Shown here: in pieces, positions 5,785 through 23,474 of the stretch
Layout of the letters: each line of letters starts with the position of its first letter
Position numbering within the stretch: the stretch's first letter is position 1
Source of the DNA: Caldimicrobium thiodismutans
Lineage (GTDB): Bacteria > Desulfobacterota > Thermodesulfobacteria > Thermodesulfobacteriales > Thermodesulfobacteriaceae
Assembly (NCBI RefSeq): GCF_001548275.1
Contig: NZ_AP014945.1
Coordinates: forward strand, 210,001 to 242,000
Length of the DNA stretch: 32,000 bases
Direction of reading: 5' to 3'
The notes under the pieces: model-generated
Databases searched by the model: none
What the model saw: the letters and a program-made list of their open reading frames with translations, nothing else
Told to the model about the DNA's origin: nothing
Translations under genes and position numbers: made by a program

Positions 5785-7014
5785 CTACTCACCTCCCTTT
5801 ATGTGTTTTTTGAAATCTTCAAGATTGGGTTTAATTCTGATTAGAGGTTTCAAATGATTAACTACTACTTCCTGGGTTTTAAGGCCATTTCCAGTAATAC
5901 AGATAACTACCTCTTCATCCCGTGGAAGGATTTCCTTTTCAATAAGCTTTTTGGTAACAGCCACCGTTACTCCCCCTGCAGTTTCTGTGAAGACCCCTTC
6001 AGTTTCTGCAAGAAGTTTTATTCCCTCAATAACCTCCTCATCACTTACCGCCTCTGCATAGCCACCAGTTTTTCTAACTATCTCCAAGGCATAGACCCCA
6101 TCTGCAGGATTTCCAATAGCAATGGATTTGGCAATGGTTTTGGGTTTCACAGGCTTAATAATATTGGCTCCTTCTTTAAAGGCATTTACAATAGGAGCAC
6201 AACCCTCTGCCTGAGCTATAAAAAATCTTGTTTTGAATTCCGGAATAAGCCCGAGCTGGTAAAACTCAGCTAAACCTTTGTAGATTTTAGTAACAAGTGA
6301 TCCTGAGGCAGCAGGAATAACTATATTCTGAGGAGCTCTGAAGCCAAGCTGGTCAGCTATTTCAAATCCATAAGTTTTTGACCCCTCTGCATAGTAGGGT
6401 CTTAAATTGACATTTACAAAAGCCCAGCGAAAGGTCATAGCAATCTCTGCACAAAGCCTGTTTACCTCATCATAATTTCCATAAACTGCAACAAGATTTA
6501 CTCCATAAATCAAGGAAGAAAGAATTTTTGAGGTCTCAAGATCATAGGGCACAAAAACATAACAATCAAACCCACTTGCCCTTGATTGTGATGCCACAGA
6601 ATTGGCAAGATTTCCCGTTGATGCACAGGCAACAGTTTTAAAACCAAATTCCCGTGCCTTTGAAAGTGCCACAGCAACCACACGGTCTTTAAAAGAAAGA
6701 GTAGGATGGTTCACTGAATCATCCTTTATATAGCATTTTTTTATCCCTAAGGCCTGTGCCAGATTTTGGGCAGAAAAAAGAGGGGTAAAGCCAGTATTCA
6801 AACCGCAAACAGGCTCCCCATCAATAGGGAGAAGTTCCCGATATCTCCAGATATTTGGTGGTCTTTTTTCAAGTTCTTTTTGAGAAAATACCTTTTTTAT
6901 GGCAGAATAATCATATTCCACCTCAAGAGGTCCAAAACACCATTCGCAAACAAAAATGGGCTCTTTGGGATATTTTCTTCCACATTCTCTACATTTAAGC
7001 CCTTTAACAAACAT
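5785..7014 (-). CDS. Threonine-synthase-like PLP enzyme with N-terminal zinc ribbon
   Basis: CRECG...CEWC ribbon, SFKDR PLP-lysine motif, 409 aa. Confidence 0.85.
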   Translation of the reverse strand: MFVKGLKCRECGRKYPKEPIFVCEWCFGPLEVEYDYSAIKKVFSQKELEKRPPNIWRYRELLPIDGEPVCGLNTGFTPLFSAQNLAQALGIKKCYIKDDSVNHPTLSFKDRVVAVALSKAREFGFKTVACASTGNLANSVASQSRASGFDCYVFVPYDLETSKILSSLIYGVNLVAVYGNYDEVNRLCAEIAMTFRWAFVNVNLRPYYAEGSKTYGFEIADQLGFRAPQNIVIPAASGSLVTKIYKGLAEFYQLGLIPEFKTRFFIAQAEGCAPIVNAFKEGANIIKPVKPKTIAKSIAIGNPADGVYALEIVRKTGGYAEAVSDEEVIEGIKLLAETEGVFTETAGGVTVAVTKKLIEKEILPRDEEVVICITGNGLKTQEVVVNHLKPLIRIKPNLEDFKKHIKGGE

Positions 7015-7024
7015 TTTTCACCTC

Positions 7025-7462
7025 CTAAGGAACAATTTCAAGGATTTCTTCTTTAAATTTTCCTTCTTCAAAAAAGAAAACCCTGAGGTCCTTCAATCCT
7101 TCTTTTTCAATCCGCCCTATGAGATAAAGATATCCTTCCCAAGCCACTTCCTCATCAAAGGAAGAGGGTAAGGCTGGATAATGGGGATGAGAATGAAAGA
7201 TTCCTAAGACTTCAAATCCAGAGGCCTCAGCTTCTCTTTCCGTAATTAGAAAATCCTTGGGATCAATTTGATATCTTCTTTTTCTTTCTTCTTTAACTGG
7301 CCAAACATTTTCTACAGGTTTTATTTTTACTATTTTAAAGGTATGGTCTTCCCTTTTCCCGATGAGGAGAGCACAGGCCTCTTCTGGATAACAAGTCCTT
7401 CCCCATCTTTCAATTGCACCTTTAAGTTCCTCAGGTAAAATTACCCTTTTTTTAAAGTTCAT
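7025..7462 (-). CDS. JAMM/MPN+ metalloprotease (Mec+/CysO-hydrolase type)
   Basis: EACALL ... HSHPHYPALPSSFD is the JAMM motif E..HxH..S..D. The start at M6 (7462) is preferred, and it overlaps the cysM stop. Confidence 0.85.
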   Translation of the reverse strand: MNFKKRVILPEELKGAIERWGRTCYPEEACALLIGKREDHTFKIVKIKPVENVWPVKEERKRRYQIDPKDFLITEREAEASGFEVLGIFHSHPHYPALPSSFDEEVAWEGYLYLIGRIEKEGLKDLRVFFFEEGKFKEEILEIVP

Positions 7463-8387
7463 GCCAGAACCTCTCACTTAGATACTTATGTCCGCTATCT
7501 GGGAAGAGGGTAACAATTACTCCTTCCTTAAGGCTTGAAGCTATTTTAAGAGCTCCTGCAAGAGCTGCCCCAGAGGAGATCCCAACAAAAAGGGAAAGCC
7601 TTTCAAGTAAAGCCTTCACAAAGAAATAAGCCTCTTCAGTTTTAACAAAAATTACCTCATCAAGAATACTTTCATCGTAGATAGCAGGCTTTAAGGCACT
7701 GGGCATATGTTTCAGTCCTTCAATTCCATGAAGGGGACTATCTGGCTGAATCCCAACAAGCTTAATCTCAGGATTTTTCTCCTTTAGATACCTTCCCACT
7801 CCCATCATGGTGCCTCCTGTTCCAAGCCCTGCCACAAAGTGGGTTATTCTCCCTGAGGTGCCCTCCCAAATCTCAGGACCTGTGGTTTTATAATGAGCTA
7901 AATAATTGGCAGGATTACTATATTGATCTGCATAATAATAGAGTTCTGCCTCTCTTTCATAAAGTTCCCTTGCCTTGAGTATAGCCCCATCAATTCCCTC
8001 AAGGGGATCGGTAAGAATGAGTTCTGCCCCGAAGATCTTAAGAAGCTTGATTCTTTCAGGGCTTGCATTGGATGGAAGACACAGAGTTACCCCATAACCC
8101 CTCTGTCTGGCAAGAAGAGTATAGGCAATTCCCATGTTGCCAGATGTGGCATCAAGAAGTCTCTTTCCTGGTTTTAAAAGCTCCTCTCTTTCTGCAGATA
8201 AAATAATTTCCCTTGCAGGACGGTCTTTTACTGAGCCCCCAGGATTATACCACTCCGCCTTCGCATAAAGCTTAACCCCTTTATTACCTTTTAAGAAAAT
8301 TCCCAGATCAATAAGAGGAGTATTCCCAATCATGTTATATATATCTTTAAATATAAATAAATTTTTAAAACTTTGATCTTCTCTCAT
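7452..8387 (-). CDS. cysM: Cysteine synthase family PLP enzyme (CysM-like, probably thiocarboxylate-dependent)
   Basis: NPGGSVKDRPA PLP-lysine motif and a G.GTGGT loop. GGAG RBS before the ATG at 8387. Confidence 0.9.
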   Translation of the reverse strand: MREDQSFKNLFIFKDIYNMIGNTPLIDLGIFLKGNKGVKLYAKAEWYNPGGSVKDRPAREIILSAEREELLKPGKRLLDATSGNMGIAYTLLARQRGYGVTLCLPSNASPERIKLLKIFGAELILTDPLEGIDGAILKARELYEREAELYYYADQYSNPANYLAHYKTTGPEIWEGTSGRITHFVAGLGTGGTMMGVGRYLKEKNPEIKLVGIQPDSPLHGIEGLKHMPSALKPAIYDESILDEVIFVKTEEAYFFVKALLERLSLFVGISSGAALAGALKIASSLKEGVIVTLFPDSGHKYLSERFWHEL

Positions 8388-8571
8388 CTTTTTCTCCTTG
8401 TTTAAAGTTTTTTAAAGAGAAAAAAACGAGAAAATCTTATTAGAAGGTACAGGGACACTCCGGGCACATTCGCCCGGAACAACGGCAGAAAATATTGATA
8501 ATAATTTCAAAATTAAAATTTACCTTCATACTAATTTTAGTTTATAACTTAATTTTTAAATTTGTCAAGAG
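8388..8571 (-). promoter_or_regulatory. Promoter candidate plus structured leader of about 130 nt for the cysM operon
   Basis: On the minus strand: TTGACA (8563-8568), 16 nt spacer, TATAAA (8541-8546). The leader has a long-range GAAGGUA/UACCUUC pairing enclosing a CCGGGC-GAAUGU-GCCCGG hairpin. Confidence 0.3.
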
Positions 8572-9006
8572 CTAAAATATCAAAATCTTTTGAGAAGATT
8601 TTATAGCTCCAATAAGGTCTTTAAGAACACTTGTATTCCCAAGACTTGGGGACTGCCTGTCCCTCATTTTAAGACAGGTCAGTCAGGAAAAAAATTCTCC
8701 CCCATTTTGAAGGATTTTATAAAAAAGCTCTTTAAGATTAAATTGCGTGGTTTCTAATTCAAGAGCCTCAACACCCTCTCCTGTAAAGAAAATTTTTACT
8801 TTTTCTCCAGAGGATAACAAACCCTCTGCAATTCTCATGGCATTCCAGAGTCTCTCTAAATCTTTGGTAAGAATGATAAAGAGATAAAAACTTGAGGAGC
8901 TTCCAGCCCCACCTTCAGGAGGTCAACAAGCTGTCTGAGCCTGCCCTCCCCCAAATGGTGACGTAGGTCAAGCAAATCCAAAAGTATGCATGTTTTCCAT
9001 CTTCAT
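8572..9006 (-). CDS. DsrE/DsrF-like protein, candidate selenoprotein (or decaying paralogue) with three in-frame TGA codons
   Basis: AGGAGGTAAAAG-ATG at 9006. A single frame runs to the TAG at 8572 with TGA codons at 8968-8970, 8923-8925 and 8683-8685. Residues 40-144 align with the neighbouring DsrE-like gene, including U-x-x-C at the same position. The gene is absent from the ORF track. Confidence 0.4.
8653..8682 (-). promoter_or_regulatory. SECIS-like hairpin directly after the TGA at 8683-8685
   Basis: RNA CUG-A-CCUGUC-UUAAAAUGAGG-GACAGG-CAG begins at the first base after the UGA. Confidence 0.35.
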
Positions 9007-9032
9007 CTTTTACCTCCTGCAATAAGTTTTTA

Positions 9033-9344
9033 TTAAAAAAACACTAATTTATCGGAATTCATAACCAATTCATAAAAATCAATCATGCTTCCTTCTTCTC
9101 CCTGAGGCGAGAAACCTCTCGCCCTGGCACAGGCGCCTCAAGCAACAATCTTCCCATTTTTTTCAATAACCTCCCTCATAAGAGTAAGAATTTTTTCCTC
9201 ACTTAGGGTTAAAACCTCAACGCCTTTTCCCATGGCAAAGATTTTAACCTCATGGCCCTCTTCAAGGGCAACCAGTGAAAACCTCAAGGCATTGTAAAAA
9301 TTTTCAGCTTCAGAGGTGTTAATCACTACCCCAATTTTCCCCAT
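9033..9344 (-). CDS. DsrE/DsrF-like selenoprotein candidate (Sec at the TGA 9138-9140)
   Basis: The track ORF stops at TGA 9138-9140, but the same frame continues for 34 codons (GACARARGFSPQ...DKLVFF) to a TAA at 9033-9035. Read together this gives VA-U-GAC-ARARG, matching the C-x-x-C...RG active-site region of DsrE-like proteins. The start MGKIGVV at 9344 has a G-rich RBS. Confidence 0.65.
9101..9133 (-). promoter_or_regulatory. Bacterial SECIS-like stem-loop
   Basis: RNA CCUG-UGCCAG-GGCGAGA-GGUU-UCUCGCC-U-CAGG. The GGUU apical loop lies 22-25 nt after the UGA, as in known bacterial SECIS elements. Confidence 0.55.
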
Positions 9345-9472
9345 CTTCCCCCCCTTTATATTCAAATATCTAAATATTAGATTATATAAAACTATCAAAA
9401 AGTCAAGAGGGAAAAATTCTTTTCAAGAAGTTCCTTTTAAAAATTAGAGAAATTTAATTTCCCCAGACTTAA

Positions 9473-11023
9473 CTATGACATCTTTTCCCAGGAAAAATCT
9501 TTGATATTTCTCTCCCCTGAAGAAAACTCAATCCCAATAAGATAAATCTCCTTAGACTTCCCCTCATACTTCTTATGATAACCCTTCTCCTTAAGTTGAG
9601 CTAAGGCTTTAGCTTCTCCCTCCTCTCCCTCAAACACCTTGAACTCAAAAAGATAAACTCTTTCCCTATAGATCACTGTCAAATCTATCTGCCCCTTATT
9701 CGTTATATCCTCAGGTATCACCTCAAGCCCGGACCCACATAAAAAGGCATAAAAACAACTTACATAATACCCCTCATAACGGGAAAGCTCATTTTTCCTG
9801 AACCAATCATGGGGTATCCCTGCGTAAAGACCCTCAAGAACCCTCTTCATCTTCTCAAAATCCCTCTCCCTCACTGCCTCAATCATCTTAAGAGATAGCC
9901 TTGGTCTTTCTGAACTGAGCTGAGTAAAATAAGAAAAAAGAACTCTGTTTAAGCTAATTTTTACCTCTTTATTTGGATAAGAAAGCTTATAGAGAATTAA
10001 CCCTTCCTCTTCAATAGTTTCTTTAATGGTCAAATAACCTACCTGAAAGAGAAGGTTTTCTGGTTCAATATAGTCAAGGTCAAAGGTGCCAATAAGGTCA
10101 TCAGTTGCAGTTAGGTCTTCAAGCTCGGGAAGATAAAAACGCTTCTCCATTAAAAGCTTTACAAGAAAACTGGGAGTCCCAGTTTCAAACCAGTAGGGGT
10201 GAAAGGTTCTTTTCTCAAGATAAAGAAGCACATCAAAGGGGTTGTAAACTGGTTCCCCAAGCCAGGAATAACCATTATACCAGCATCTTATAAGCTCTAA
10301 ATCCTTATCTTGCAATTCTTCTCTGAAAACTTCTTCAAGCTCCTTTTGAGTGAATCCGCAAATAGTTGAATACTTTCTGCTTAAAGTAATATCATTTAAG
10401 AAATTTAAACCTGAGAAAATTGAAGACATATAAAATTTTAAAACCCCTGTTAAAAGAACAAATTTGAGATATCTATCAAGGGGCTTTAGAATAATGTAAA
10501 ATTTTACAAGAATATCTCTTATTCTTTTTGCAGTTTCTCTATCCTCAATGCAATCAAGAATAGGTTTGTCATACTCATCAATAAGAACTACAACTTTTTG
10601 CTTATATTTTTCATAACACTTAAGAATTAATTCCTCAAAACAGCCATCATAAAGGGTTTTTTCTGAACAGGGGACTCCAAGAGTTTCTTGATTTTTCTCA
10701 AGTTGTTCAAGAATATAAGTTATTAGATGTTCCTCTCCTTTGAAGGTTCTTCCCCCAAAACTTATATGAATAACAGGATACCTGACACTCCAGTCCCAGT
10801 TTTTCTCAAGATAAAGCCCCTGGAAAAACTCCTTTCTTCCAAGGAAGGCCTGTTTCAGGGTGTCCACAAAAAGGGATTTTCCAAATCTCCTTGGGCGAGA
10901 GAGAAAATAATAAGTTCCCTCTTCAACAAGTTTTGCAACAAATGGAGTTTTATCCACATAATAATAGGGCTCACTTCTAATCTTTTCAAAGCTTGAAATT
11001 CCAATGGGAAGTTTTTTCTGCAT
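9473..11023 (-). CDS. AAA-ATPase-like (PF09820-type) protein with C-terminal PD-(D/E)xK nuclease domain (PDDEXK_9/DUF1703-type)
   Basis: N-terminal LPIGISSFEKIR...YYYVDKT..I..L......YFLSRPRRFGKSL is the hallmark of this family. The C-terminal G.IDL.V......YLFEFK is the nuclease-fold motif. Confidence 0.8.
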   Translation of the reverse strand: MQKKLPIGISSFEKIRSEPYYYVDKTPFVAKLVEEGTYYFLSRPRRFGKSLFVDTLKQAFLGRKEFFQGLYLEKNWDWSVRYPVIHISFGGRTFKGEEHLITYILEQLEKNQETLGVPCSEKTLYDGCFEELILKCYEKYKQKVVVLIDEYDKPILDCIEDRETAKRIRDILVKFYIILKPLDRYLKFVLLTGVLKFYMSSIFSGLNFLNDITLSRKYSTICGFTQKELEEVFREELQDKDLELIRCWYNGYSWLGEPVYNPFDVLLYLEKRTFHPYWFETGTPSFLVKLLMEKRFYLPELEDLTATDDLIGTFDLDYIEPENLLFQVGYLTIKETIEEEGLILYKLSYPNKEVKISLNRVLFSYFTQLSSERPRLSLKMIEAVRERDFEKMKRVLEGLYAGIPHDWFRKNELSRYEGYYVSCFYAFLCGSGLEVIPEDITNKGQIDLTVIYRERVYLFEFKVFEGEEGEAKALAQLKEKGYHKKYEGKSKEIYLIGIEFSSGERNIKDFSWEKMS

Positions 11024-11314: not shown

Positions 11315-14300
11315 TTGAGTAATGATCTTATAATAAGGGAGAGCGCTGAGATGAAGGCACACACAGATTTAACTTTCATAGTAAATGAACCAGGGCATAC
11401 TCTTAAAGATAGATTTGAGAAACTGATAAAAGATTGCAAATTTTTTGATTGTTTGGTTGCTTATTTTTATATAAGCGGGTTTCACGCCATATCCAAAGCA
11501 CTTGAAAAAACTGAGAGAATAAGAATTCTTATTGGGCTTGGGATAAATAAAGAAGCCTATGAGTTAGTTAAAAGCGCAAAAGATAGACCTCAAAATTTAT
11601 GTCAACTCTCTCATTCAGAAACAAAAGAAATCATTGAAAAGGCGATAGTAGATGAGTTGGCTGATTCAGAAGATAGTCTTCAAGTTGAAGAGGGAGTTAA
11701 AAAATTTGTTGAATGGATAAGATCAGAGAAATTACAAATAAGGGCTTATCCTTCTCAAACTCTTCATGCGAAATTATATATTATGACTTTTAAAGAAGGT
11801 GATAGAGATATAGGAAGAGTAATTACTGGTTCAAGTAATTTTACCTATTCAGGCCTTGTGGATAATCTTGAATTTAATGTAGAGCTTAAAAACCGAGCAG
11901 ACTATGAATTTGCAAAAAGTAAATTTGAAGAATTATGGAGAGATTCAGTTGATGTAAATGAAAAATTTATTCAAACAATAAATGAAAAAACCTGGCTTAA
12001 TCAAAATATTACCCCTTATGAGCTTTATCTTAAATTTTTATACGAATATTTTAAAGAGGAATTATCAAGAACAGATGAAATATTTACAAAATATTTGCCA
12101 GAAAATTTTAAAAGATTTGAATATCAAGAGCAAGCAATTTTAAATGCTAAAAAGATACTGGAAGAGTATGGAGGTGTTTTTATTTCCGATGTAGTAGGTC
12201 TCGGGAAAACCTATGTTGCCACTATGCTTGCAGCGCAACTTGATGGAAGAACGCTTGTTATAGCACCACCAGCGCTTCTCAATGAAAACAACCCAGGGTC
12301 ATGGATAAATATTATTCGTGACTTTCATATACCTGCTAAATGCTGTTCAATTGGCAAACTTGATGAAGCAAAAGCATTTATAGAAAGATATGAAAATACA
12401 GATCATCCTGTAAAAAACATAATTATAGATGAATCACATCGTTTTAGAAATGAAACTACAATTAGTTATGAAGATATTGCTGAAATTTGTCGAGGAAAAA
12501 GAGTTATATTGGTTTCAGCAACCCCTTATAATAACTCACCAACGGACATTCTTGCCCAGATAAAGCTCTTTCAGAATCCGAGAAAAAGCACTATCCCTGG
12601 TGTCCCAAACCTTGAAGATTTCTTTGGTAAACTTGAGGCAAGATTAAAGAAAGTTGACAGGCAGAAAGATTATAACAAATTTCTTGAGATAACAAAAATT
12701 AATGCAAAAGAAATACGTGATAAAGTTTTGAAATATTTAATGGTTAGAAGAACAAGAAGTGAAATTGAAAAATATTTTGCAGAGGATCTGAATAAAAACA
12801 ATGTTAAATTTCCAGATGTAGAGAACCCAAAGCCCTTTTATTATCAGTTAAATGATGATGAAGATAGAATTTTCATGGAAACAGTTAAACTCATAACACA
12901 AGATTTCAACTATGCTCGTTATAAACCATTACTTTATTTAAAGAAATCAATTTCCCCGCTTGAAGCGCAGTCTCAAAGGAATATGGGGGGTTTCATGAAA
13001 GTGCTTCTTGTAAAGCGTTTGGAGAGTAGTTTCTATGCATTTAGAAAAAGTATTGATAGATTTATCAGGTCATATGAGACGTTTATTAAAGAATATGAAA
13101 AAGGAAATGTATATATAAGCAAAGGATATATAAACAAAATTTTTGAACTTTTAGAACAAGGAGATGATGAAACAATTCAAAGATTAATAGATGAGGGAAA
13201 GGCAGAAAGATATGATAGTGAAGATTTCAGTCCTGATTTTGAAAAAGATTTAAAGAATGACCTTGAAATTTTGAAAAAGATAAAATCAATGTGGGAGAAT
13301 ATAAAAAGAGATCCAAAAATTCAAAAGTTAATCAACGAATTAAAAAATAATTCTATTCTTAAAAATAAAAAAATAATTATCTTTACTGAATCTAAAGAAA
13401 CGGCAGAGTATTTAACTGAGCATATAAACAGCGAAATTGGAGAAATAGCTTTGCTCTTTCATGGTAGCTCTTCTGAAAGTATCCGAGATAAAGTTATAGA
13501 AAATTTTGATGCAAGGGCAAAAAATAAGAGGAGTTATTATAGAATTCTTGTTACAACTGAGGTTCTCTCAGAGGGAGTTAATCTTCATCAGTCAAACATT
13601 GTAATAAATTATGATATACCCTGGAATCCTACAAGGCTGATGCAGAGAGTTGGAAGAATTAACAGGATAGACACTCCGCATGATAGAATTTACATTTTTA
13701 ACTTTTTCCCTACAAGGCAAGCGGATTCTGAAATTGAACTTACAAATATTGCTCGCTCAAAAATAGAGGCATTTTTAACATTACTGGGTGGTGATTCAGC
13801 CATTTTAACAGAGGGAGAACCAGTCTCTTCTCATGAACTCTTTGATAAGCTTCTTTCAAAGAAAACCATCACTGAGGAAGATGAAGAGGAGGAAAGTGAG
13901 CTGAAATACTTAAGAATTATTGAAGATATTCGTGATAAAAATCCAGAACTTTTTGAGAGAATAAAAGGACTTCCAAAGAAAGCTCGCTCTGCAAAGGCAG
14001 GATGTAACACAGGCACTCTTGCCTATGAAAGTAACACAGACAAGAATGTCTGTGCTACCAGTGATGCCTTACTTACATTTTTTAGAAAAGGAAAACTTAT
14101 GAAATTTTTTTTATCCAATAAAGAAAAAACAATTGAGCTTGATTTTATAACTGCTGCAAAAATTCTTGAAAGCACACAGGATGAAAAAAGAGTAAAGCTT
14201 CCCCTTAAAAGTTATTATGAATTGCTTAATAAGAATAAAAATGCTTTCTTTAATGCAACTATGGAAGAGGAAATGATTGAGACGACTGGTAGACGAGGTG

Positions 14301-14617
14301 GTGGAAGTAGTTCTGTTAAACTTCTAAAAATTTTAAAAGCAACACAAAAGAATAGTAAGCAACTGACAGAAGAACAAGAAGACTATCTTAAAAAAGTAAT
14401 AACCCGTTTAGAAGAAGGTTCCTTACCTAAACAGACAGTTAAGAGGATACTCAGTGAACTAAATAAATTAGGAACAGAGATTCAAAATCCCTTAAAGGTT
14501 ATTGGAATTCTTCAGAGAGAAATATCTCCTGCTTTTCTTAAAAGCCATTATGCAGAAACCTCAGCAATAACAGAAGGAAAAAGGGAAGTTATACTATCAC
14601 TTTATTTAGCAAGGTGA
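11315..14617 (+). CDS. PLD-family (single HKD) nuclease domain fused to an SNF2/Rad54-type helicase
   Basis: HKD motif LHAKLYIM (H at 11765) with GSSNFT (11828-11845). Helicase motifs DVVGLGKT (12198-), IIDESHRF (12428-), SATPYNN and QRVGRINRI. The TTG at 11315 is the track start, and the ATG at 11351 with an AAGGGAGAG RBS is more likely. Confidence 0.9.
14004..14058 (+). repeat. Hairpin-repeat element inserted in frame inside the helicase ORF
   Basis: GTAACACAGGCActctTGCCTATG followed by CACAGACA-AGAA-TGTCTGTG (14035-14054). This is the same element as at 22064-22083 and 23207-23226. It translates as [19 protein letters not shown]. Confidence 0.75.
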
Positions 14618-14622
14618 TAAAT

Positions 14623-14916
14623 ATGACAAAAATTGAAGAGATTAAAGAAAAAATAAGAGAACTAAAACCTGTGCTTCAAGAAAAATATAAAGTTAGCGAG
14701 ATAGGCATCTTTGGCTCTTATGTGAGAGGAGAGCAGAAAAAGAAAAGCGACCTTGATATCCTTGTTGATTTTTATGAAGTTCCTGACCTGTGGTCATTCA
14801 TTGAACTTCAAGATTTTCTATCAAAAGAATTAAAAGTTAAAGTTGACCTTGTTATGAAATCCGCCCTTAAGCCATATATAGGAAAAATTATCTTACAAGA
14901 GGTAATTTATATATGA
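14623..14916 (+). CDS. Minimal nucleotidyltransferase (MNT, MntA-type antitoxin)
   Basis: [10 protein letters not shown]...SDLDILV (GS...DxD). AAGGTGA RBS before the ATG at 14623 (the track gives a GTG at 14614). Confidence 0.85.
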
Positions 14917-15260
14917 GAGAAATAAGAGACTATCTGATAGACATAAAAACTGAATGTGAATATTTAATGAGCAAAAGTAAAAATTTAGACTATGAAAGTT
15001 TTATCGTAAATGAGGAACTGAAAAGAGCATTTGTAAGAAGCCTTGAAATCATTGGAGAAGCCAGTAAGCACATTCCAAAAGAGTTGAGAAGAAAATACTC
15101 TCAAATCAGATGGAAAAGTGTTATAGGAATGAGAAACATTTTGATTCATGAATATTTTGAAGTTGATTACATGGTTTTGTGGAAAGTCATTAAAGAAAAA
15201 ATACCAGAGTTGTATGAAGTGATAAAAAATATGCTTGAAGAGGTAAACAAAAATGAATAG
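14913..15260 (+). CDS. HEPN domain (DUF86, HepT-type) toxin
   Basis: Rx4H motif in [13 protein letters not shown] overlap with the MNT stop. Confidence 0.85.
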
Positions 15261-18200
15261 AGAACAAGCAAAAAACTTGATAATTGAAACATTTGAAAAT
15301 TCTTTTGATAAAGATAAATTTATTAAATTTAACACTAATTTACTAAAAACTTATGATAGAAATAAAGCTCTTGAACCAAGAAGCGGAATTCAAGGGATAA
15401 CTGAAAGATATCTTGATTTTATTGCATCCTGGGAAAGAATTGGTAGATATGTAGATAAAGATGGCAAAAAGATTGATATATTGGTTGTGAAATTAAAGAG
15501 GGAAACATCCCTTTTCAGAGCAAGAACTGCTCAGAGAAATTTCGTTGCTGAATATTTAAAAGGAATCCTTGGAACAACTACAGAGAAAGATGCGGCCCTT
15601 GTAGCTTTTATATCACCAGATTTAGAAGACTGGCGATTTTCCCTTGTCAAATTAGATTATCGCTTTGAGGAGACCCCTTCTGGCAGAGTTAAAGCCAAAG
15701 AAGAATTTACACCTGCCAAAAGATGGTCCTTCCTTGTTGGAAAAAATGAAAAAAGCCACACCGCTCAATCAAGATTTTTACCCATACTTGAAAATGATGA
15801 TTTCAAACCAACCCTTGAAGATTTAGAAAAAGCCTTTGATGTTGAGGTTGTAACAAAAGAATTTTTTGAAAAATATAGAAACCTCTTCATAAGAACAAAA
15901 CTTGAACTTGATGAAATTGTTAAGAAAGATAAAAAAGTGAGAAAAGAATTTGAAAGAAAGAATATCAATACTATTGATTTTGCCAAAAAACTACTTGGTC
16001 AAATTGTATTTCTCTATTTCCTACAAAAGAAGGGTTGGTTTGGTGTTGAAAAAGGAAAACCTTGGGGAACAGGTCCAAAAGACTTTATAAGGAGATTGTT
16101 TAACAAAGAATTTGGAGATTATGAAAACTTTTACAACGATATACTTGAACCACTTTTTTATGAAGCATTAAGAACAGATAGAAGCGTGGATGACCATTAT
16201 TACAGTAGATTTAATTGCAAAATTCCTTTCTTAAATGGTGGTCTTTTTGACCCTATTAATGATTTTGACTGGGTAAATGTTGATATTCTTTTACCTAATG
16301 AGCTTTTCTCAAATAAAAATAGAACAAAAGAAGGTGATATTGGAGATGGTATTCTTGATGTCTTTGATAGATTTAATTTCACTGTAAATGAAGAAGAGCC
16401 ACTTGAAAAAGAAGTAGCCCTTGATCCTGAGCTTCTTGGAAAAATTTATGAAAAACTAAATGCCATAAGACCGGATAACTTTGATGAATATGTAAGAGTT
16501 CTAAAATCTGGTAAAAAAGGTGAAGAAACAAAGTTTAATAAAGAATATGGAGTTTATTACACGCCAAGAGAAATTGTCCATTATATGTGCCAGGAAAGTT
16601 TGATAAATTATCTTGAAATAGAACTTCAAGGGAAGGTCAAAAAAGAAGATATTGAAGAATTTGTAAGATATGCTGATTTAATTTTAGAGAATGAAAGAAC
16701 AGTTATAAATAAAAGAAAAGAAACAAAGACATATAAGCATAAAATGCCAGAAAGTATAATTGAAAATGCACAACTTATTGATGAACTTCTTGCTAATATT
16801 AAAATTTGCGACCCAGCTGTTGGTTCTGGTGCTTTTCCTATTGGAATGATGCATGAGATAGTAAAATTAAGACAATTGCTATCAGTATATCTTAATAAAC
16901 CGATAAACAATTATGACTTAAAGCGCCATTGTATAGAAAATTCTCTTTACGGAGTAGATATTGACCCAGGAGCAGTTGAGACTTGTAAGTTAAGATTCTG
17001 GCTTTCAATGATTGTGGATGAAGAAGATTTTAACAACATAAAACCCCTTCCTAACCTTGATTATAAGGTTGTCTGTGGGGATTCACTTTTAGGATTTCCT
17101 GAAAATTGGGGTTCAAATATTGAAAAGGAAATTGAAGATTTAATGGATAGATACTTTGAAGAAGCTCATCCTAAAACCAAATCAGAATTAAAACAGTTAA
17201 TTGATGGGAAAATAAAATGGCGGTTAGAAAATTCAGAAAAAAATTTTGGATACAAAATTAATTTTGATTTTAGATTATTCTTCCCAAAGGTATTTAAAGA
17301 AAAAGGTGGTTTTGATATAGTGATTGCAAATCCGCCGTATGTGAGGCAGGAAAGGATAAAACATTTAAAACCTAATCTTCAAAAATTTTATAGGGACTTC
17401 TTTAACTCCACTTCTGACCTTTACACTTACTTTTACAAAGAATCATACGATATTTTACGAAATGATGGGATACTTTGTTTTATATCAAGCAACAAATGGT
17501 TGAGGGCAAAGTATGGTAAGAATTTAAGAAAACTTTTGAAAGAAAACACAAAAATAATAGAACTTATAGATTTTTCTGGCTATTCAGTCTTTGAACAAAC
17601 TGTTGATACGAATATAATTCTCTTTCAAAAGAGAAGACCAGAGAAACACCATGCTTTAAACTTTGTGAATGTAAAAAGTGATGTTGATGATGTAATAAAC
17701 TACATTCAAGATAATAAACAATCCATTTTACAAGAAAAACTCTCTGATAATGCTTGGACACTGGCGGAAGATAAAGTCCTTACATTGAAAGAAAAGATAG
17801 AAAAGATTGGAAAACCACTTAAAGAGTGGGATGTGAAAATTTATTTTGGAATTAAGACAGGCTTTAATGAGGCATTCATTATTGATACAGAGACAAGAAA
17901 CAAGATTTTAGCAAACTGCAAAACAGAAGAAGAAAGAAAAAGGACAGAAGAGATAATAAAACCGGTTTTGAGAGGAAGGGATATTGAAAGATGGAGGTAT
18001 AAGTGGGCAGGATTGTGGTTGATAGGAACATTTCCAGCTTTAAATCTTAACATTGATAACTATCCAGCGTTAAAAGAATATCTAAAATCATTTGGAGATA
18101 GATTAAATCAGGATGGAAAGCCAGGGCATCGTAAGAAAACTAATAATAAATGGTTTGAGACACAGGATAATATTGCATACTACCCAGAATTTGAAAAGGA

Positions 18201-18630
18201 AAAGATTGTGTGGAATAGGATTACAGAAGAAATTGTATTTTCTTATGTAGAGGCTAACTATTATGTTTTAGATAGTACTTTTATGCTTACAGGAGAAAAT
18301 TTAAAGTTTTTGATATCTATATTAAATTCTAATGTTATTAGTTTTTGGATAAAACTTTCCGCAGCCACATTGGGGAAAGGTAATTATGGTGCCAAAATTT
18401 ATATTGAAAATTCTCCCATTCCACCCATCACACCACAAAACCAACCCATTGTCAAGCAACTAGAAAAACTTGTAGATAAAATCCTAACCCTAACCCAAGA
18501 CCCAACCTACGCCACAGACCCACAAAAACAGGAAGAAGTTAAAAAGCTTGAAAAACAAATAGACCACCTTGTGTATAAGCTTTATAATTTAACAGAGGAG
18601 GAGATTAAAATAATTGAAGGAGAAAAATAA
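15253..18630 (+). CDS. Large gamma-class N6-adenine DNA methyltransferase (Eco57I/PglX/YeeA-like) with a TaqI_C-like target-recognition domain
   Basis: Motif [11 protein letters not shown] (about 16809-16838). Motif IV NPPY (17329-17340). [16 protein letters not shown]...[12 protein letters not shown]-terminal [17 protein letters not shown] tail. No convincing D...ExK nuclease triad was seen by eye in the N-terminal 450 aa. Confidence 0.9.
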
Positions 18631-20387
18631 TGGCAGATAAACAAGATTTATGGAATTTAAGTAATAGACTTTCAACGAAAACGAAACTTGAAATTTTAGA
18701 AAAGATTTTTGATGTATGGCTGACCATTTGGAACAATCAAAAATGGGTATCAAATGAATGGTATATCATAGATTTATTTGCTGGTAGAGGTAAGTATAAT
18801 GATGGAACTTATGGTTCACCACTTATTTTTCTTGATAAAATTTTAAAAAAAAGAATAGACAAAAAATTGAGAGAAAATATCAAAATTAAATGCTTTTTTA
18901 TAGAACTGAATAAAGATAACTTTGCTTGTCTAAAAGAAAACATTGAAGAATTTCTTAATAAAAATCCCGAGACAAATAAAGTAGTTGAATCTCAAGTCTA
19001 TATTGGAGATTGTAATGAAAAAATACCTGAAATAATAAGACAGATTAATAACACTCCAAAAAATCCTCTTTTTGTTTTAATAGACCCAACGGGTTTACAA
19101 ATTAAGAGAAAGACTGTTGATTTAATGGTTAAATTAAATAACCCGAAAGATATCATGTTCAATTATATTTTGGAAGGTGTTCGTCGCACCAGTGGTGTAG
19201 CAAAAAAGAGAAGATCAGGAACCGAATTAACAGAAAAAGAGATTAAGACTATAAATACTCTAAAAGAATTTATTGGGGATGATATTAATTTAATAGGAAA
19301 TGACCAAAAAATGTTAGAAGATTTTGTTGGCTCTGTTTTTACCTCCAAAGGGCTTCATGTTGTGGGGTATGATATCAAATATCCAGACCGCAATGATACT
19401 TTGTATTATCTTCTTTATGCATGCAAAAAACCCAATATAGCTGAAATTGTTAAAGATGTTTATGCACGACAGAAAGAAAAGATTTTAGGGAGAACATTGT
19501 TTGGTGGTAAAGATTTCTATAAAGAAAAGATTTTTGAAGCTTCACCCACAGTTATTAATAGAAAAACTCTCTTATATCAAACAAAAGTTGAATATGGAGA
19601 TTGGACGATAAATCACATTGTTGGTTGTAAACATGGTTGTAAGTTTCCTTGTTATGCGATGATGATGGCAAAAAAATTTGGTTGGGTTAAAGATTATGAA
19701 GATTGGAGAAATCCAAAGATTGTAGCGAATGCTTTAGAACTTCTTGAGAAAGAGATACCGAAATATAAAAATTACATTGATTTTGTTCATTTATGTTTTA
19801 TGACTGACCCTTTTATGTATGATTATAAAACAAAAATGATAATACCAGAAATAAAAGAGTTAACATTAAATATTATTGAAAGATTAAATAAAGAAGGTAT
19901 AAGAGTAACAACTTTAACGAAAGGAATTTATCCTGAAGACTTGTTAAATAAAAGAAAATTTCTGGAAACTAATGAATATGGGATAACACTTGTTTCCTTA
20001 AATGATGATTTTAAAAATAAATTTGAACCTTATTCTGCACCATATGAGGAAAGGATAGCAGCTTTAAAAAAACTTGCTGATAATGGATTAAAAACATGGG
20101 TAAGTATTGAGCCTTATCCAGTTCCTGCTTTAGATCCTCAATCTGCAGATATTGAGAGAATCTTAAATAAAGTTAGTTTTGTAAAAAAAATAATCTTTGG
20201 AAAACTAAATTATAGAAGGTTGGCAGAATATAATAATTCTTATTGTGCCTGGAAAAATAATGAAGAATTCTATAGAGAAATGGCTCAAAAAGTAATTGAG
20301 TTTTGCAAAAAGAATGATATAAAATATCATATAAAATTTGGGACCCCCTTGAGTAAAAATGAAAGTGTAAATATTTTTAAAGAATGA
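18630..20387 (+). CDS. Fusion of a TcmP-like (three-Cys-motif partner, Rossmann/MTase-like) N-domain with a radical-SAM-like (COG1533/SplB-like) C-domain
   Basis: N-domain: KTKLEILEKIFDVWL, IIDLFAGRG and VLIDPTG. C-domain: W.IN..VGC333KHGC337KFPC341YA, then TTLTKG, ITLVSLND..FEPY.APYEERI.ALKKL...G and SIEPYP. The start overlaps the MTase stop (TAATG). Confidence 0.7.
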   Translation: MADKQDLWNLSNRLSTKTKLEILEKIFDVWLTIWNNQKWVSNEWYIIDLFAGRGKYNDGTYGSPLIFLDKILKKRIDKKLRENIKIKCFFIELNKDNFACLKENIEEFLNKNPETNKVVESQVYIGDCNEKIPEIIRQINNTPKNPLFVLIDPTGLQIKRKTVDLMVKLNNPKDIMFNYILEGVRRTSGVAKKRRSGTELTEKEIKTINTLKEFIGDDINLIGNDQKMLEDFVGSVFTSKGLHVVGYDIKYPDRNDTLYYLLYACKKPNIAEIVKDVYARQKEKILGRTLFGGKDFYKEKIFEASPTVINRKTLLYQTKVEYGDWTINHIVGCKHGCKFPCYAMMMAKKFGWVKDYEDWRNPKIVANALELLEKEIPKYKNYIDFVHLCFMTDPFMYDYKTKMIIPEIKELTLNIIERLNKEGIRVTTLTKGIYPEDLLNKRKFLETNEYGITLVSLNDDFKNKFEPYSAPYEERIAALKKLADNGLKTWVSIEPYPVPALDPQSADIERILNKVSFVKKIIFGKLNYRRLAEYNNSYCAWKNNEEFYREMAQKVIEFCKKNDIKYHIKFGTPLSKNESVNIFKE

Positions 20388-20394: not shown

Positions 20395-20479
20395 GAATTT
20401 ATTCGAAATCTATCCTCAAAACCAACCTATTGTCCAGCAAATAGAAAAACTTGTAAATCAAATCCTCTCTCTTGCCCAA
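20395..20479 (+). pseudogene. Displaced MTase 3'-end fragment, part 1
   Basis: Nucleotide-level similarity to 18404-18490. The peptide YPQNQPIVQQIEKLVNQILSLAQ compares with [23 protein letters not shown]. Confidence 0.7.
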
Positions 20480-20480: not shown

Positions 20481-20564
20481 GTAACACAGGCATTTCTGCC
20501 TGTGGAAGTAATACATATTCATGTATGAAAGTAACACAGGCAATCTTGCCTGTGGAGTCAACTA
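20481..20564 (+). repeat. Cluster of three hairpin repeats
   Basis: CACAGGCA-tttc-TGCCTGTG (20485-20504), ATACAT-attc-ATGTAT (20511-20526), CACAGGCA-atct-TGCCTGTG (20535-20554). Confidence 0.8.
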
Positions 20565-21785
20565 TGAAAAATTATAAGCATAGTAAAAACCTCCTTGAGA
20601 AGGAATATTATGATAAGTAGAAGGATCAAAATATTTTTTATATTTGAGAAGTGCATAAATAATTCTCAAAAGTTTATGAGCGGTGGCCAAAACCGCTTTT
20701 TTATAAGGCAATCCTTGTCTTTTTCTCCTCTCAAAATAGCTCCAGAATATAGGATTGTGTCTGATTACATTAATACTCATAAGCCATACAACCCTTCTCA
20801 AATGCCTATTTCCTCGTTTAGAAATCTTGCTCTTTCCTTTAAAATTTCCAGATTCATAAACAGCAGGATCAAGTCCTGCATAGGCAATCAATTGTTTGTA
20901 CGATTGAAATCTCTTTATATCCTGAATTTCAGCAAGAAAATGAAGCGCTGTAATTTCTCCAATTCCCTCAATAGAAAGGAGGATATCAAGGTCCTGGCAA
21001 GCGGAAATCTCTTTACAAGCGGATTTAAGAAGTTTTTCAATTTCTTTAAGGGTTTCCTGAAGGAAGAAGAGTTCTTGAATGGTTCTGGAAAGAATATATT
21101 CTTTTGCGGGCCAATTTTGAGCTATAGAATATTCAGCAAGGGCTTTTATTTCTTTAGCAGAAATGGCGGGTTTTTTACCTTTTTGAGAGGAGAGTATATT
21201 TTCAATTTCCTCAAGAGAGGCTTTTTTAATAGCTTTAGCAGAGGGGAATTTTTCAAGAAGTTTAAGAATGGAGGTATTGTAGATATTGACGGTTCTTTCA
21301 AGTTCAGGGAAGGTAACGACCACAAGTTTTTCGAGGTTATTTTTTCTTTTAGCGATTTCTTGAGAAATTCTTTCTCTTTCTCTGGCAAGGTCTTTAAATT
21401 CTTCAGAAGTAAAGGCCTGGGGAGGTAGTTTTTGATGGAATTGAGAAAGGAAGATGGCGATAGTTTTAGCGTCTATGGCATCGGTTTTGGTTTTTCTAAG
21501 AGAGAGTTTAGCAAAATTTTTAATGAGAATTGGATTAAGGATGACGCAAGTGAAGTTATGATTAACGAGGTAGGTGATGAGATTAAGATGATAACAACCA
21601 GAGGATTCAATACCGATAAGGATGGATTTTTTTAAGCCTTGAGGGAGAGCTTTTGTAAAGGATTTGATGCCCTGGTAGTCAAGAGGGTAGGACTGGTTAA
21701 AGAGGACATTTTGAGAGGAATCAATGAGGCAGGCATGAAAGAAGTTTTTGGAGACATCAAGGCCTACAAAGTAGGTGTAGTGCAT
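20562..21785 (-). CDS. IS110-family (DEDD/RuvC-like) transposase
   Basis: N-terminal VGLDVSK. C-terminal SI.GIG..TA..FLAEI.D..RF....QL.AYAGL.P....SG. GGAGG RBS. The TAG stop at 20562-20564 sits at the IS/flank junction. Confidence 0.9.
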   Translation of the reverse strand: MHYTYFVGLDVSKNFFHACLIDSSQNVLFNQSYPLDYQGIKSFTKALPQGLKKSILIGIESSGCYHLNLITYLVNHNFTCVILNPILIKNFAKLSLRKTKTDAIDAKTIAIFLSQFHQKLPPQAFTSEEFKDLARERERISQEIAKRKNNLEKLVVVTFPELERTVNIYNTSILKLLEKFPSAKAIKKASLEEIENILSSQKGKKPAISAKEIKALAEYSIAQNWPAKEYILSRTIQELFFLQETLKEIEKLLKSACKEISACQDLDILLSIEGIGEITALHFLAEIQDIKRFQSYKQLIAYAGLDPAVYESGNFKGKSKISKRGNRHLRRVVWLMSINVIRHNPIFWSYFERRKRQGLPYKKAVLATAHKLLRIIYALLKYKKYFDPSTYHNIPSQGGFYYAYNFS

Positions 21786-22040: not shown

Positions 22041-22085
22041 ACTCCTATGTGTGAAAGTGAAAACACAGACAAGAATGTCTGTGCT
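22041..22085 (+). repeat. Hairpin repeat (right half of the unit split by the IS)
   Basis: ACTCCTATGTGTGAAAG...CACAGACA-AGAA-TGTCTGTG (22064-22083), nearly identical to 23183-23226. Confidence 0.8.
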
Positions 22086-22211
22086 ACAACAGACCCACTA
22101 AAACAAGCCTAAGTAAGAGACCTTGAAAAACAAATAGACCACCTTGTTTATGAGCTTTATAATTTAACAGAGGAAGAGATTAAAATAGTTGAAGGAGGTA
22201 AAATAGAATGA
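22086..22211 (+). pseudogene. Displaced MTase 3'-end fragment, part 2 (contains an in-frame stop)
   Basis: [38 protein letters not shown] compares with [39 protein letters not shown] at 18506-18630. It ends in an ATGA overlap with the next gene, as an intact MTase would. Confidence 0.75.
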
Positions 22212-22705
22212 GTTATCTAATTTATGCGGCGTATGGTTCAAACCTTTTAAAAGAGAGGTTTATGGTTTATATAAAAGGTGGAATGTATCGTGGCTGGGAA
22301 TACTCGGGAAGCAAAGACAAAACTGAACCTCAAGATTTAGGGTGGATGTATGTTCCGCATAGATTATATTTTGCTAAAAGCTCTTCAAAATGGGCCAACA
22401 AAGGAGTAGCATTTTTAAGTTGTGAAAAGGAAAAAGATAGTAGTTTTCATGCGGTTGTCAGGCTTTGGAAGGTATCGCAGCAACAGTTTGAAGACATTAA
22501 GAAACAAGAAGGACGATGGTATGATGTAGAATTAGAATTGGGAGAAAAGGACGGTTTTATAATAAAAACTATCACTGGTTGTTGGAAAACTGAAATCAAT
22601 AAACCTTCAGAAGAATATCTTAATATAATTAGGCAGGGTCTAAAGGAAACAACAAAGGGATGGTCCGAGGATAAAATTGAGGAATATCTCAGGAAATTTT
22701 TGTAA
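22208..22705 (+). CDS. GGCT/AIG2-like (gamma-glutamylcyclotransferase fold) protein
   Basis: N-terminal YAAYGSNL (compare YFAYGSNL) and a downstream ...KKQEGRWY... (compare LD..EG..Y). 165 aa. Confidence 0.5.
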   Translation: MSYLIYAAYGSNLLKERFMVYIKGGMYRGWEYSGSKDKTEPQDLGWMYVPHRLYFAKSSSKWANKGVAFLSCEKEKDSSFHAVVRLWKVSQQQFEDIKKQEGRWYDVELELGEKDGFIIKTITGCWKTEINKPSEEYLNIIRQGLKETTKGWSEDKIEEYLRKFL

Positions 22706-23057: not shown

Positions 23058-23226
23058 ATGCATAAATTCATATCCTTACAAGAAAAAAGTAAGGGTGGTA
23101 AAAGAGGAATTAGATATCTATACAAAAGAGGTTTTACAAGTCTGAAAGTAACACAGGCATTCCTGCCTGTGAAAGTAAACTACACTCCTATGAGTGAAAG
23201 CAAAAACACAGACAAGAATGTCTGTG
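23058..23226 (+). repeat. Repeat head element plus an intact hairpin-repeat unit
   Basis: The head ATGCATAAATTCATATCC..AAGGGTGGTAAAAG is related to 28531- and 2383-2425 (reverse complement). Hairpins: CACAGGCA-ttcc-TGCCTGTG (23152-23171) and CACAGACA-AGAA-TGTCTGTG (23207-23226). Confidence 0.75.
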
Positions 23227-23297
23227 CTACAACAGACCCACAAAAACAAGCCCAAGTTAAAGAGCTTGAAAAACAAATCGACCAGCTTGTGGTTTAG
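23227..23297 (+). pseudogene. Fourth copy of the MTase 3' end (fragment)
   Basis: TTDPQKQAQVKELEKQIDQLVV* with nucleotide similarity to 18506-18580. Confidence 0.65.
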
Positions 23298-23474
23298 CTT
23301 TATAAGTTAATGATTTTTTTGCCTTTACAAATAATATTTTGTAGAAAAATGAAAAAACATGGAGGCTGTGAAGGTTAAAATTTGCTCCTAATAAATATTA
23401 TCAGTGTTCAATCGCCCTTGATGAAAAGGGGATGATTAGTCCTTCTGCTTTTGGAAAATAACAAGCCTCGGGGC

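Follow-up and report, generated by a model that had tools for sequence, protein, structure and literature searches.

Introduction

TcmP proteins and their three-cysteine-motif partners, which resemble radical S-adenosylmethionine (SAM) enzymes, are represented by the models TIGR04474 (TcmP) and DUF5131 (PF07505, the partner). Separate, adjacent genes for TcmP and DUF5131 were listed as the candidate defence systems PDC-M30 and PDC-M41, which were derived by ‘guilt-by-embedding’ (bioRxiv 10.1101/2024.01.29.577857). In the RadicalSAM.org classification, DUF5131 (5-2) is placed beside spore photoproduct lyase (SPL; 5-3) and the MJ0683-like proteins (5-1) (PMC9477430). In Sinorhizobium, a TcmP gene lies near the gene for the defence helicase Hna (SMa2243, SMa2245), and the two are co-upregulated in the same strain (PMC12445080).

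Here we analyse a 32,000-nucleotide (nt) stretch of the Caldimicrobium thiodismutans genome (contig NZ_AP014945.1, positions 210,001 to 242,000; hereafter the window), in which one gene appears to encode, as a single chain, the ‘TcmP + three-Cys radical SAM’ module that otherwise consists of two components. The locus resembles the described pairs in its bona fide TcmP half, its three-cysteine, radical-SAM-like partner half and its mobile, phage-associated and restriction-embedded context. It differs from them in that the two modules are fused and that the partner loop has the spacing Cx3Cx3C, whereas DUF5131 has Cx6Cx2C. The TcmP/three-Cys pair is already known; the present protein is set apart from it by the fused architecture, the distinct partner subfamily and the Cx3Cx3C loop.

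Results

One polypeptide carries a TcmP domain and a radical SAM domain

The gene (18630..20387, plus strand) is a single uninterrupted open reading frame (ORF) of 585 amino acids (aa). Its product is 100% identical to a C. thiodismutans protein in the NCBI database that is annotated only as ‘radical SAM protein’. An earlier note, written from the letters of this DNA alone, had claimed that a TcmP-like and a radical-SAM-like domain are fused here, and both TIGR04474 and PF04055 indeed score above their cutoffs. The motifs named in that note were all located, namely DLFAGRG (residues 48–54), LIDPTG (150–155), GCKHGCKFPCYA (332–343), TTLTKG, ITLVSL and SIEPYP. Hidden Markov model (HMM) searches and structure comparisons assigned the N-terminal half to TcmP with a class I methyltransferase fold and the C-terminal half to an SPL-like radical SAM fold. 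The earlier note would have given up its claim if profiles and folds had failed to place the halves or if the cysteines had varied among homologues; both domains were placed, and the latter objection falls because the three cysteines are conserved. The two domains are joined by a poorly conserved linker (residues 296–314; 19515..19571, plus strand), recognized by low conservation and indels in alignment columns ~320–340. In loci with two separate genes, the gene boundary coincides with this linker region. Direct reading of the start region (18614..18632, plus strand) revealed a Shine-Dalgarno sequence, AAGGAG, 9 nt ahead of the start codon, and a TAATG stop/start overlap with the upstream methyltransferase gene.

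The C-terminal domain is a radical SAM domain with an expanded cysteine loop

The C-terminal half (residues 315–585; 19572..20384, plus strand) matched the Pfam model PF04055 (Radical_SAM) with 49.6 bits over residues 327–493, the gathering threshold being 29.5 bits. It also matched phrog_13321, a PHROG family without an assigned function, at 1e-21 over residues 317–548. The AlphaFold2 (AF2) model of this half had a predicted local distance difference test (pLDDT) score of 89.8 and a predicted template modelling (pTM) score of 0.89. With this model, Foldseek retrieved as the best match SPL with a bound dinucleoside photoproduct (4fhf; E 1e-6; template modelling (TM) score of the query, TMq, 0.66). 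Further fold matches at E ≤1e-3 were the pyruvate formate-lyase activating enzyme (PFL-AE), MqnE, SuiB and BlsE. A sequence search of the Protein Data Bank (PDB) with the family profile gave chance matches only, that is, no solved structure detectable by sequence. We assign the domain to the SPL/COG1533 type of radical SAM proteins.

The predicted [4Fe-4S] loop, GCKHGCKFPCYA (19623..19658, plus strand), contains the cysteines C333-x3-C337-x3-C341 and corresponds to the canonical Cx3Cx2C arrangement plus one proline. This spacing, pointed out in the earlier note, was read directly, and the three cysteines are invariant within N-H-x-x-G-C-x-H-G-C-x-F-P-C-Y in an alignment of 27 homologues of 57–82% identity (alignment A1). 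To survey the loop more widely, we scanned one genome per GTDB species, which yielded at least 595 loci, 80 of which were kept for all locus counts. GCxHGCx[FY]PCYA was found in 78 of the 80 genome loci, and C.HGC.[YF]PCY in 48 of 50 viral loci. We also scored all cluster representatives of a 1.84-billion-protein library (2327 at E ≤1e-3, 140 at E ≤1e-30); among the top 150 representatives, 70 carry Cx3Cx3C and 15 the canonical GCxHGCxYC(Y/F)A. Because close relatives have the canonical spacing, we read Cx3Cx3C as the usual radical SAM loop into which one proline has been inserted. This expanded loop is fixed in a large clade and does not reflect cysteines that happen to lie close together. 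The C-terminal half thus departs from the canonical Cx3Cx2C spacing, although it exceeds the PF04055 threshold and has the partial TIM-barrel fold.

The literature searched contained no account of a radical SAM loop with Cx3Cx3C spacing; the two radical-SAM-related papers that matched ‘Cx3Cx3C’ dealt with a thuricin peptide motif and an apparent misprint for NifB. ThiC, HmdB and QueE variants are radical SAM enzymes with non-canonical cluster loops, and they likewise combine three conserved cysteines in a spacing other than Cx3Cx2C with a radical-SAM-like core. In one relative, the radical SAM domain is joined to a sigma-70 region 4-like helix-turn-helix (HTH), a fusion that would be compatible with binding to DNA. 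A Rosetta-stone check of other domain fusions (P0131, P0137 and others) yielded only this HTH fusion.

The N-terminal domain is a TcmP with a class I methyltransferase fold

The N-terminal half (residues 1–295; 18630..19514, plus strand) matched NCBIfam TIGR04474 (TcmP) with 119.7 bits at a cutoff of 53; residues 16–281 cover positions 3–262 of the 263-position profile. In PADLOC it matched PDC-M30A and PDC-M41A, the PDC-M30A match (98 bits) being confined to residues 6–177. The AF2 model (pLDDT 92.7, pTM 0.91) predicts a seven-stranded class I SAM-methyltransferase fold with an additional helix at the N-terminus and a helical segment inserted between beta5 and beta6. The best PDB neighbour in Foldseek was Escherichia coli RlmJ (E 3e-6, TM 0.42–0.46), followed by generic small-molecule and RNA methyltransferases, and a search of a viral structure library returned generic methyltransferases only.

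Motif I, DLFAGRG (18771..18791, plus strand), corresponds to the SAM-binding glycine loop. Its residues D48, L49, F50, G52 and G54 are invariant in the 27-sequence alignment, and D48, A51 and G52 are unchanged even across distant TcmPs. The sequence GSPLIFL (18813–18833, plus strand) follows motif I. Motif IV occurs as the variant DPTG (D152-P153-x-G155; 19083..19094, plus strand). Across 21 diverse TcmPs, D152 and P153 do not vary, and conservation of G155 is at least 90%. The residues of the N-terminal half that are invariant in the 27 sequences include D48, L49, F50, G52, G54, G62, S63, E92, N129, P146, D152, P153 and G155, and D127 is conserved in the TcmP domain alongside motif I, E92 and D152. 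With the cofactor motifs I–III intact, the class I fold and the conserved motifs predict that TcmP binds SAM. A winged-helix DNA-binding subdomain at the tail of the N-terminal half was considered and rejected, as its two strands turned out to belong to the methyltransferase core, namely beta6 and beta7; only some stand-alone TcmPs have a GMT-like winged HTH, in the form of a C-terminal extension.

RlmJ, the N6-methyltransferase of A2030 in 23S rRNA (COG2961), is the nearest solved structure, albeit a weak match. By eye, a verified RlmJ sequence has the elements D-x-x-A-G-x-G-x-Y (motif I), GSPLI and LIDP (at motif IV) in the same order as TcmP. RlmJ differs in having DPPY where TcmP has DPTG, and its helical subdomain between motif I and GSPLI is missing from TcmP in the sequence comparison. 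An hhalign comparison of TcmP with E. coli RlmJ gave a probability of 3.5%. Since that profile alignment was limited to motif I, we regard RlmJ as the closest known fold without placing TcmP in its family, and membership was rejected on this ground together with DPTG and the low TM score.

The protein lies outside the curated partner families

The DUF5131 profile reached only 19.3 bits on the C-terminal half, against a threshold of 28.9, and aligned with positions 1–90 of its 243 positions, which leaves this half outside DUF5131. Similarly, PDC-M30B and PDC-M41B gave 22–25 bits over residues 317–404, the region of the cysteine loop, only. For comparison, gp42 of Gordonia phage Jablanski is a true DUF5131 protein (340 bits) with the loop GCDRVSAGCDHCYA, that is, Cx6Cx2C; it scores 353–367 bits with the PADLOC B components, which identifies these as DUF5131. 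In Gordonia phages such as this one, the TcmP and DUF5131 genes lie between the integrase and the immunity repressor. A stand-alone partner with the Cx3Cx3C loop had no match in PADLOC at all, and a Halopiger plasmid encodes, next to TcmP, a radical SAM protein with the canonical GCRHGCKFCY. PDC-M30 and PDC-M41 are defined by separate, adjacent A and B genes; in the window protein, A was matched, B was unconvincing and the two are fused. As the C-terminal half stays below the DUF5131 threshold, it belongs to a distinct partner subfamily. The window protein thus consists of a TcmP module and a third partner subfamily outside every curated model.

The SPL/COG1533 group (PA0069, Rv2578c, MJ0683-like; RadicalSAM.org Megacluster 5) is similar to the C-terminal half in that SPL is its best structural match and that it shares the GCxHGC...CYA loop context. 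The motifs TDP, TK and EP..P..R are also common to both. The C-terminal half differs by the extra proline ahead of the third cysteine and by its pairing with TcmP, for which SPL and PA0069 are not known. Matches to the PA0069 and Rv2578c families (46.8 vs. 360 bits and 42.5 vs. 430 bits, respectively) and to ‘radical SAM mobile pair protein B’ were below threshold, and the SPL Pfam model PF20903 did not match the protein. By these thresholds, the protein is a TcmP joined to a member of the radical SAM superfamily that is neither DUF5131, PA0069, Rv2578c nor SPL, and whose TcmP part is not RlmJ.

Fused and split forms are widespread and mobile

A search of a 5.8-billion-protein collection returned 320 matches, the best 120 of which were full-length fused proteins of 513–613 aa with 56–82% identity. 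Full-length fused homologues form at least 120 clusters at 90% identity and span distant lineages, including Atrimonas, Defluviitoga, Desulfurobacterium, Stahlbacteria and Endomicrobia. Across the fused family, identity to the window protein is 62–87% in the C-terminal half and 49–78% in the N-terminal half, and tblastn gave 55–78% and 22–64%, respectively. The radical SAM half is therefore far better conserved than the TcmP half.

In 36 of the 80 genome loci, a separate TcmP gene lies directly beside a radical SAM gene of ~275 codons, whereas 19 loci carry the fused gene. Two loci are fragmentary, 13 contain the radical SAM gene with no TcmP detected, and 10 are cut at a contig end. The fusion reported in the earlier note is therefore real, but with at least 120 fused clusters and 19 fused loci it is not peculiar to one genome. 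The pair was also found on 50 IMG/VR contigs, nearly all with TcmP beside the radical SAM gene. Together with the excess of split over fused loci, these contigs bear out the statement of the earlier note that TcmP and its partner are usually encoded by neighbouring genes, often in a mobile or phage setting. With few exceptions, the two modules are either fused or next to each other, a partnership that we call obligate, and they move as a unit among bacteria, archaea and (pro)viruses.

Viral TcmPs often occur as two paralogues. Fourteen viral contigs have the order TcmP-TcmP'-radical SAM-type III Mod, with a Res helicase following in ~10 of them, and other viral pairs adjoin a serine integrase or a replication module. 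In a set of proviral contigs (L089, L092, L099, L100, L107, L108, L116, L121, L129, L130 and L132; ~6800–9600), two TcmP paralogues of ~379 aa and ~289 aa precede the Cx3Cx3C gene. The ~289-aa paralogue matches PDC-M41A with 292 bits. A type III Mod gene follows the radical SAM gene on these contigs, as does a Res helicase gene in most of them. In the genome locus L024, an extra TcmP gene precedes the fused gene. The paired TcmPs of the proviral contigs and of L024 suggest that the module may work with two TcmP subunits.

The module recurs behind adenine methyltransferase genes

Through the TAATG overlap, the fused gene of the window is placed directly behind an adenine methyltransferase gene. 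At 12 further loci, the TcmP or fused gene likewise starts between −40 and +10 nt from the stop of an adenine methyltransferase gene; the methyltransferase is Eco57I-like at nine of them, type III-like (N6_N4) at two and of type ISP at one. In loci L011 and L014, the gene is flanked by mod and res of a type III system. Among the other neighbours that recur are type I HsdR/HsdS, a YhcG-type nuclease, PIN-domain proteins, a ParB-methyltransferase and a tyrosine integrase. The module lodges preferentially after restriction-system adenine methyltransferase genes or beside prophage integrases. A survey of the neighbours of related loci, suggested in the earlier note, recovered methyltransferases and helicases in a part of the loci only: of the 80 loci, 16 have an Eco57I-like methyltransferase and four a PLD (phospholipase D)-SNF2 helicase at a distance of at most 7 kb, while many copies are located among housekeeping genes.

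Duplicated methyltransferase tails flank the gene

The last ~150–200 nt of the Eco57I-type methyltransferase gene are repeated in the window. The first copy is the intact 3' tail of the gene itself (18427..18627, plus strand), as seen in repeat and sequence comparisons. The second copy is decayed: its first part lies directly downstream of the fused gene (20408..20479, plus strand; 83% DNA identity to 18433–18498, also detected by tblastn), and its second part, which includes an in-frame stop, lies at 22089..22202 (plus strand; repeat comparison and tblastn). The two parts are separated by hairpin repeats and an IS110 element. A third tail copy is present further downstream (23232–23309).

Two tail copies bracket the fused gene in the window and at three independent loci besides it, L003 (3084–3233 and 5094–5213), L006/L007 (8103–8279 and 10313–10480 in L007) and L015 (9822–10001 and 11837–11992). 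In L005 and L020, the downstream copy lies at the contig edge. Several tails alternate with successive gene cassettes in L023 (7798–7989 and 9798–9914) and L080 (9664–9852, 12670–12792 and 13513–13596). Within a locus, the tail copies are ~75–90% alike, more than between loci. This pattern looks like that expected if a circle with one tail had integrated by a single crossover (Campbell-type integration). The duplicated tails on both sides and the solitary copies elsewhere point to an inserted cassette rather than to an obligate part of the methyltransferase system, and the fused gene looks like mobile cargo inserted at the 3' end of the methyltransferase gene. The arrangement supports an insertion that leaves the methyltransferase ORF intact and borrows its translation. 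The translational coupling described in the earlier note is hence real as an overlap, but the gene does not look like an obligate part of the system to which it is coupled.

A short hairpin element, CACAGGCAnnnnTGCCTGTG or CACAGACAAGAATGTCTGTG, is present in seven copies at 14008–14054, 20485–20554, 22064–22083 and 23152–23226, where shuffling expects 0. One hairpin pair lies in frame within the PLD-SNF2 helicase ORF; the others are located in the decayed tails, at the same relative position. The IS110-family transposase gene (20562..21785, minus strand; PF01548, PF02371; NF033542, 242.7 bits) is inserted within the second tail remnant, between its hairpin repeats, and the non-coding ends of the element reach ~22030. 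IS110-type elements target short palindromic repeats, and the insertion between the hairpins is consistent with such targeting.

Directly behind the stop of the second tail remnant begins a 165-aa ORF (22208–22705, plus strand), mirroring the position of the fused gene after the first tail. Pfam, NCBIfam and PADLOC gave no match for it. Its N-terminus, IYAAYGSNLL, may resemble a gamma-glutamylcyclotransferase/AIG2-like motif. This ORF may be a second cassette.

The gene ends a five-gene operon in a low-GC stretch

Non-housekeeping genes occupy ~9.5–23.4 kb of the window and are flanked by housekeeping genes. The GC content is ~0.30–0.33 between ~11 kb and ~21 kb, compared to ~0.35–0.43 over most of the flanks. 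The fused gene is part of a five-gene operon with overlaps of 1–8 nt, encoding a PLD-SNF2 helicase, MntA, HepT, the Eco57I-type methyltransferase and the fused protein. The first gene (11315..14617, plus strand) encodes the PLD(HKD)-SNF2 helicase of 1100 aa (PLDc_2, ResIII, SNF2-rel_dom and Helicase_C; PADLOC ‘HKD+Snf2’, 157 bits), which is DrmD-like yet remains under the NCBIfam cutoffs. The toxin-antitoxin pair of the MntA nucleotidyltransferase and the HepT RNase (14614..15260, plus strand; PF01909 and PF01934) overlaps its neighbours by 4–8 nt, and MntA matches the PADLOC single-gene candidate PDC-S09 with 98.6 bits. This pair sits between helicase and methyltransferase genes in the window and downstream of the fused gene in L015 (12082–12715), which suggests that accessory genes are shuffled around the same helicase-methyltransferase core.

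The fourth gene (15253..18630, plus strand) encodes an Eco57I-type (type IIG-like) N6-adenine DNA methyltransferase/restriction protein of 1125 aa (PF07669, 151.6 bits; TaqI_C, N6_Mtase), with 1328 bits for PADLOC REase_MTase_IIG. By eye, its N-terminal region (15253–15600) reads DILVVKLK where the homologues in L080 and L027 have a PD-(D/E)xK-like motif (FLEVKK and YIEAKE, respectively). The nuclease glutamate of this methyltransferase, which is paired with a PLD-helicase, may have been replaced. Membership of the operon in DISARM or Hma was rejected, as DrmD, DrmMI and HmaA matched only partially and far under their cutoffs and neither DrmA nor DrmB was found. BREX models also matched the operon only partly and far under their cutoffs. 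The operon is better described as a PLD-SNF2 helicase with a type IIG-like methyltransferase. On the opposite strand, ~300 nt upstream of the helicase gene, lies a gene (9473–11023, minus strand) whose 516-aa product is predicted to combine an AAA-ATPase (PF09820) with a PDDEXK_9 PD-(D/E)XK nuclease; PADLOC gave no match for this protein.

Discussion

Radical chemistry on DNA as the proposed function

We propose that the fused protein carries out SAM-dependent radical chemistry on DNA in a defence-type role, as an autonomous accessory module, and give this proposal a probability of about 0.45. The C-terminal domain would bind a [4Fe-4S] cluster via C333, C337 and C341, and the cluster would reductively cleave SAM to a 5'-deoxyadenosyl radical. 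This radical would abstract a hydrogen atom from a flipped-out DNA nucleotide in an SPL-like manner, while the TcmP domain would use a second SAM molecule to recognize and/or methylate the same site. The resulting covalent DNA mark or lesion could serve to discriminate self from non-self. The module would act as an autonomous, defence-type accessory and not in housekeeping repair. In the window, the tail repeats indicate that it entered as a cassette where the type IIG methyltransferase gene ends (3' end), and it is co-translated with that gene. In favour of the proposal are the domain assignments, the conserved cluster loop, the constant partnership of the two modules, the unequal conservation of the halves, the restriction and defence genes around many copies, the signs of cassette insertion and the HTH fusion of one relative. 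The wider suggestion of the earlier note, that the protein modifies or repairs nucleic acids in restriction-like surroundings, is one that the genomic context allows us to infer reasonably.

A number of observations weigh against this proposal. The likeness of the C-terminal half to SPL is at the fold level only (TMq 0.66, 14% identity), cluster binding and SAM cleavage by the Cx3Cx3C loop are predicted, and the relation of the N-terminal half to RlmJ is weak. Motif IV reads D-P-x-G throughout the TcmPs and has no aromatic residue as in the DPPY of amino-methyltransferases, so that the N-terminal domain may not act as a methyl transferase in the strict sense; this motif speaks against N6-adenine methylation of the ordinary kind. 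Many copies are single-gene insertions among housekeeping genes (for sugar transporters, NrdR, a CODH/ACS operon (carbon monoxide dehydrogenase/acetyl-CoA synthase), SMC, PolD, LeuRS and ribosomal proteins), and their surroundings lack defence genes. In viruses, some copies adjoin a replication module, where phage DNA-modification genes also occur, and a role in counter-defence or self-modification is equally compatible with that placement. In the literature searched, we found no report of demonstrated anti-phage activity for PDC-M30 or PDC-M41 and no biochemical or genetic study of TcmP, DUF5131 or a Cx3Cx3C protein. PDC-M63AB, a candidate from the same list, had no activity in its native host (PMC12409345).

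Alternative explanations

The close association with methyltransferase genes could mean that the protein belongs, as an integral accessory subunit, to the adjacent methyltransferase/helicase restriction system, processing its N6-methyladenine (m6A) mark or supplying a radical ‘restriction’ activity that depends on the system. The start/stop overlap within the five-gene operon, the recurrence of this placement at 12 other loci with three methyltransferase classes, the position between mod and res in L011 and L014 and the conserved TcmP-TcmP'-radical SAM-Mod-Res order in a set of viral contigs all speak for it. However, most loci have no methyltransferase nearby, the copy in the Atrimonas genome and others are solitary, and the duplicated flanking tails indicate a secondary insertion. 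One prophage family, moreover, has the pair both with and without Mod-Res, and the viral Mod-Res loci are syntenic and may represent a single lineage. We consider such a subunit unlikely. An oxygen-independent DNA repair enzyme, in which the SPL-like domain would reverse a base lesion and TcmP would act as lesion-recognition or regulatory domain, would suit the nearest solved fold, the weak profile matches to the ‘DNA repair photolyase’-type families PA0069 and Rv2578c and the hosts, which by their record titles are mostly anaerobes. Those matches, however, lie far under the family thresholds, the neighbours are restriction genes and integrases instead of repair operons, and a patchy, mobile distribution that includes viruses, with 56–82% identity across phyla, is typical of selfish or defence cargo, which makes repair quite improbable.

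Equally improbable, in our view, is a modification of rRNA or tRNA, in which an RlmJ-like domain would cooperate with a Cfr/RlmN-like radical step, with altered translation during infection or resistance to a toxin as a possible outcome. RlmJ, a 23S rRNA m6A methyltransferase, is the best structural neighbour of the N-terminal half and shares by eye its order of motifs, and the operon contains the RNA-targeting HepT/MntA pair; yet the RlmJ likeness is not significant by profile and is low by TM score, the C-terminal half is closer to the DNA enzyme SPL than to RNA-modifying radical SAM enzymes, and the recurring neighbours are DNA methyltransferases and helicases. The same association with DNA methyltransferases and helicases speaks against a small antiviral molecule, for instance a modified nucleotide, made as by prokaryotic viperins with TcmP methylating or binding the nucleotide. 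Radical SAM defence enzymes of the viperin kind exist and appear at ranks 43 and 49 of the fold matches, and the module also occurs as one gene on its own. The viperin matches are far weaker than that of SPL, however, and neither nucleotide kinases nor transporters recur as neighbours in the genome and viral loci; this is the least probable of the explanations. Returning to radical chemistry on DNA, its most far-reaching form would be a self-contained, oxygen-sensitive immune enzyme of the restriction-modification kind, whose SPL-like domain attacks DNA by hydrogen abstraction (giving a lesion, strand break or adduct) while TcmP marks or selects the target. It would constitute a new chemical class of DNA-directed immunity in anaerobic bacteria, archaea and viruses, built on the Cx3Cx3C loop, and is distinctly doubtful as a whole.

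Implications for the TcmP family

The duplicated tails suggest a recombination route for the ‘embedding’ of genes in restriction loci, which the paper defining embedding left unexplained. The TcmP/three-Cys pair has been flagged by curated models and by a catalogue of defence candidates, but the literature searched assigns neither a substrate nor a product or phenotype to any member. The interest of the present protein rests on this functionally uncharted kind and its experimentally convenient form, not on rarity: the compact single polypeptide from a thermophile should suit anaerobic biochemistry, and its strictly conserved one-residue loop expansion has natural controls in sisters with canonical spacing. 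That the protein is so well conserved in bacteria, archaea and viruses implies a target common to all of them. Should DNA be the substrate, the module would bring radical chemistry into restriction and defence mechanisms or reveal a new DNA modification.

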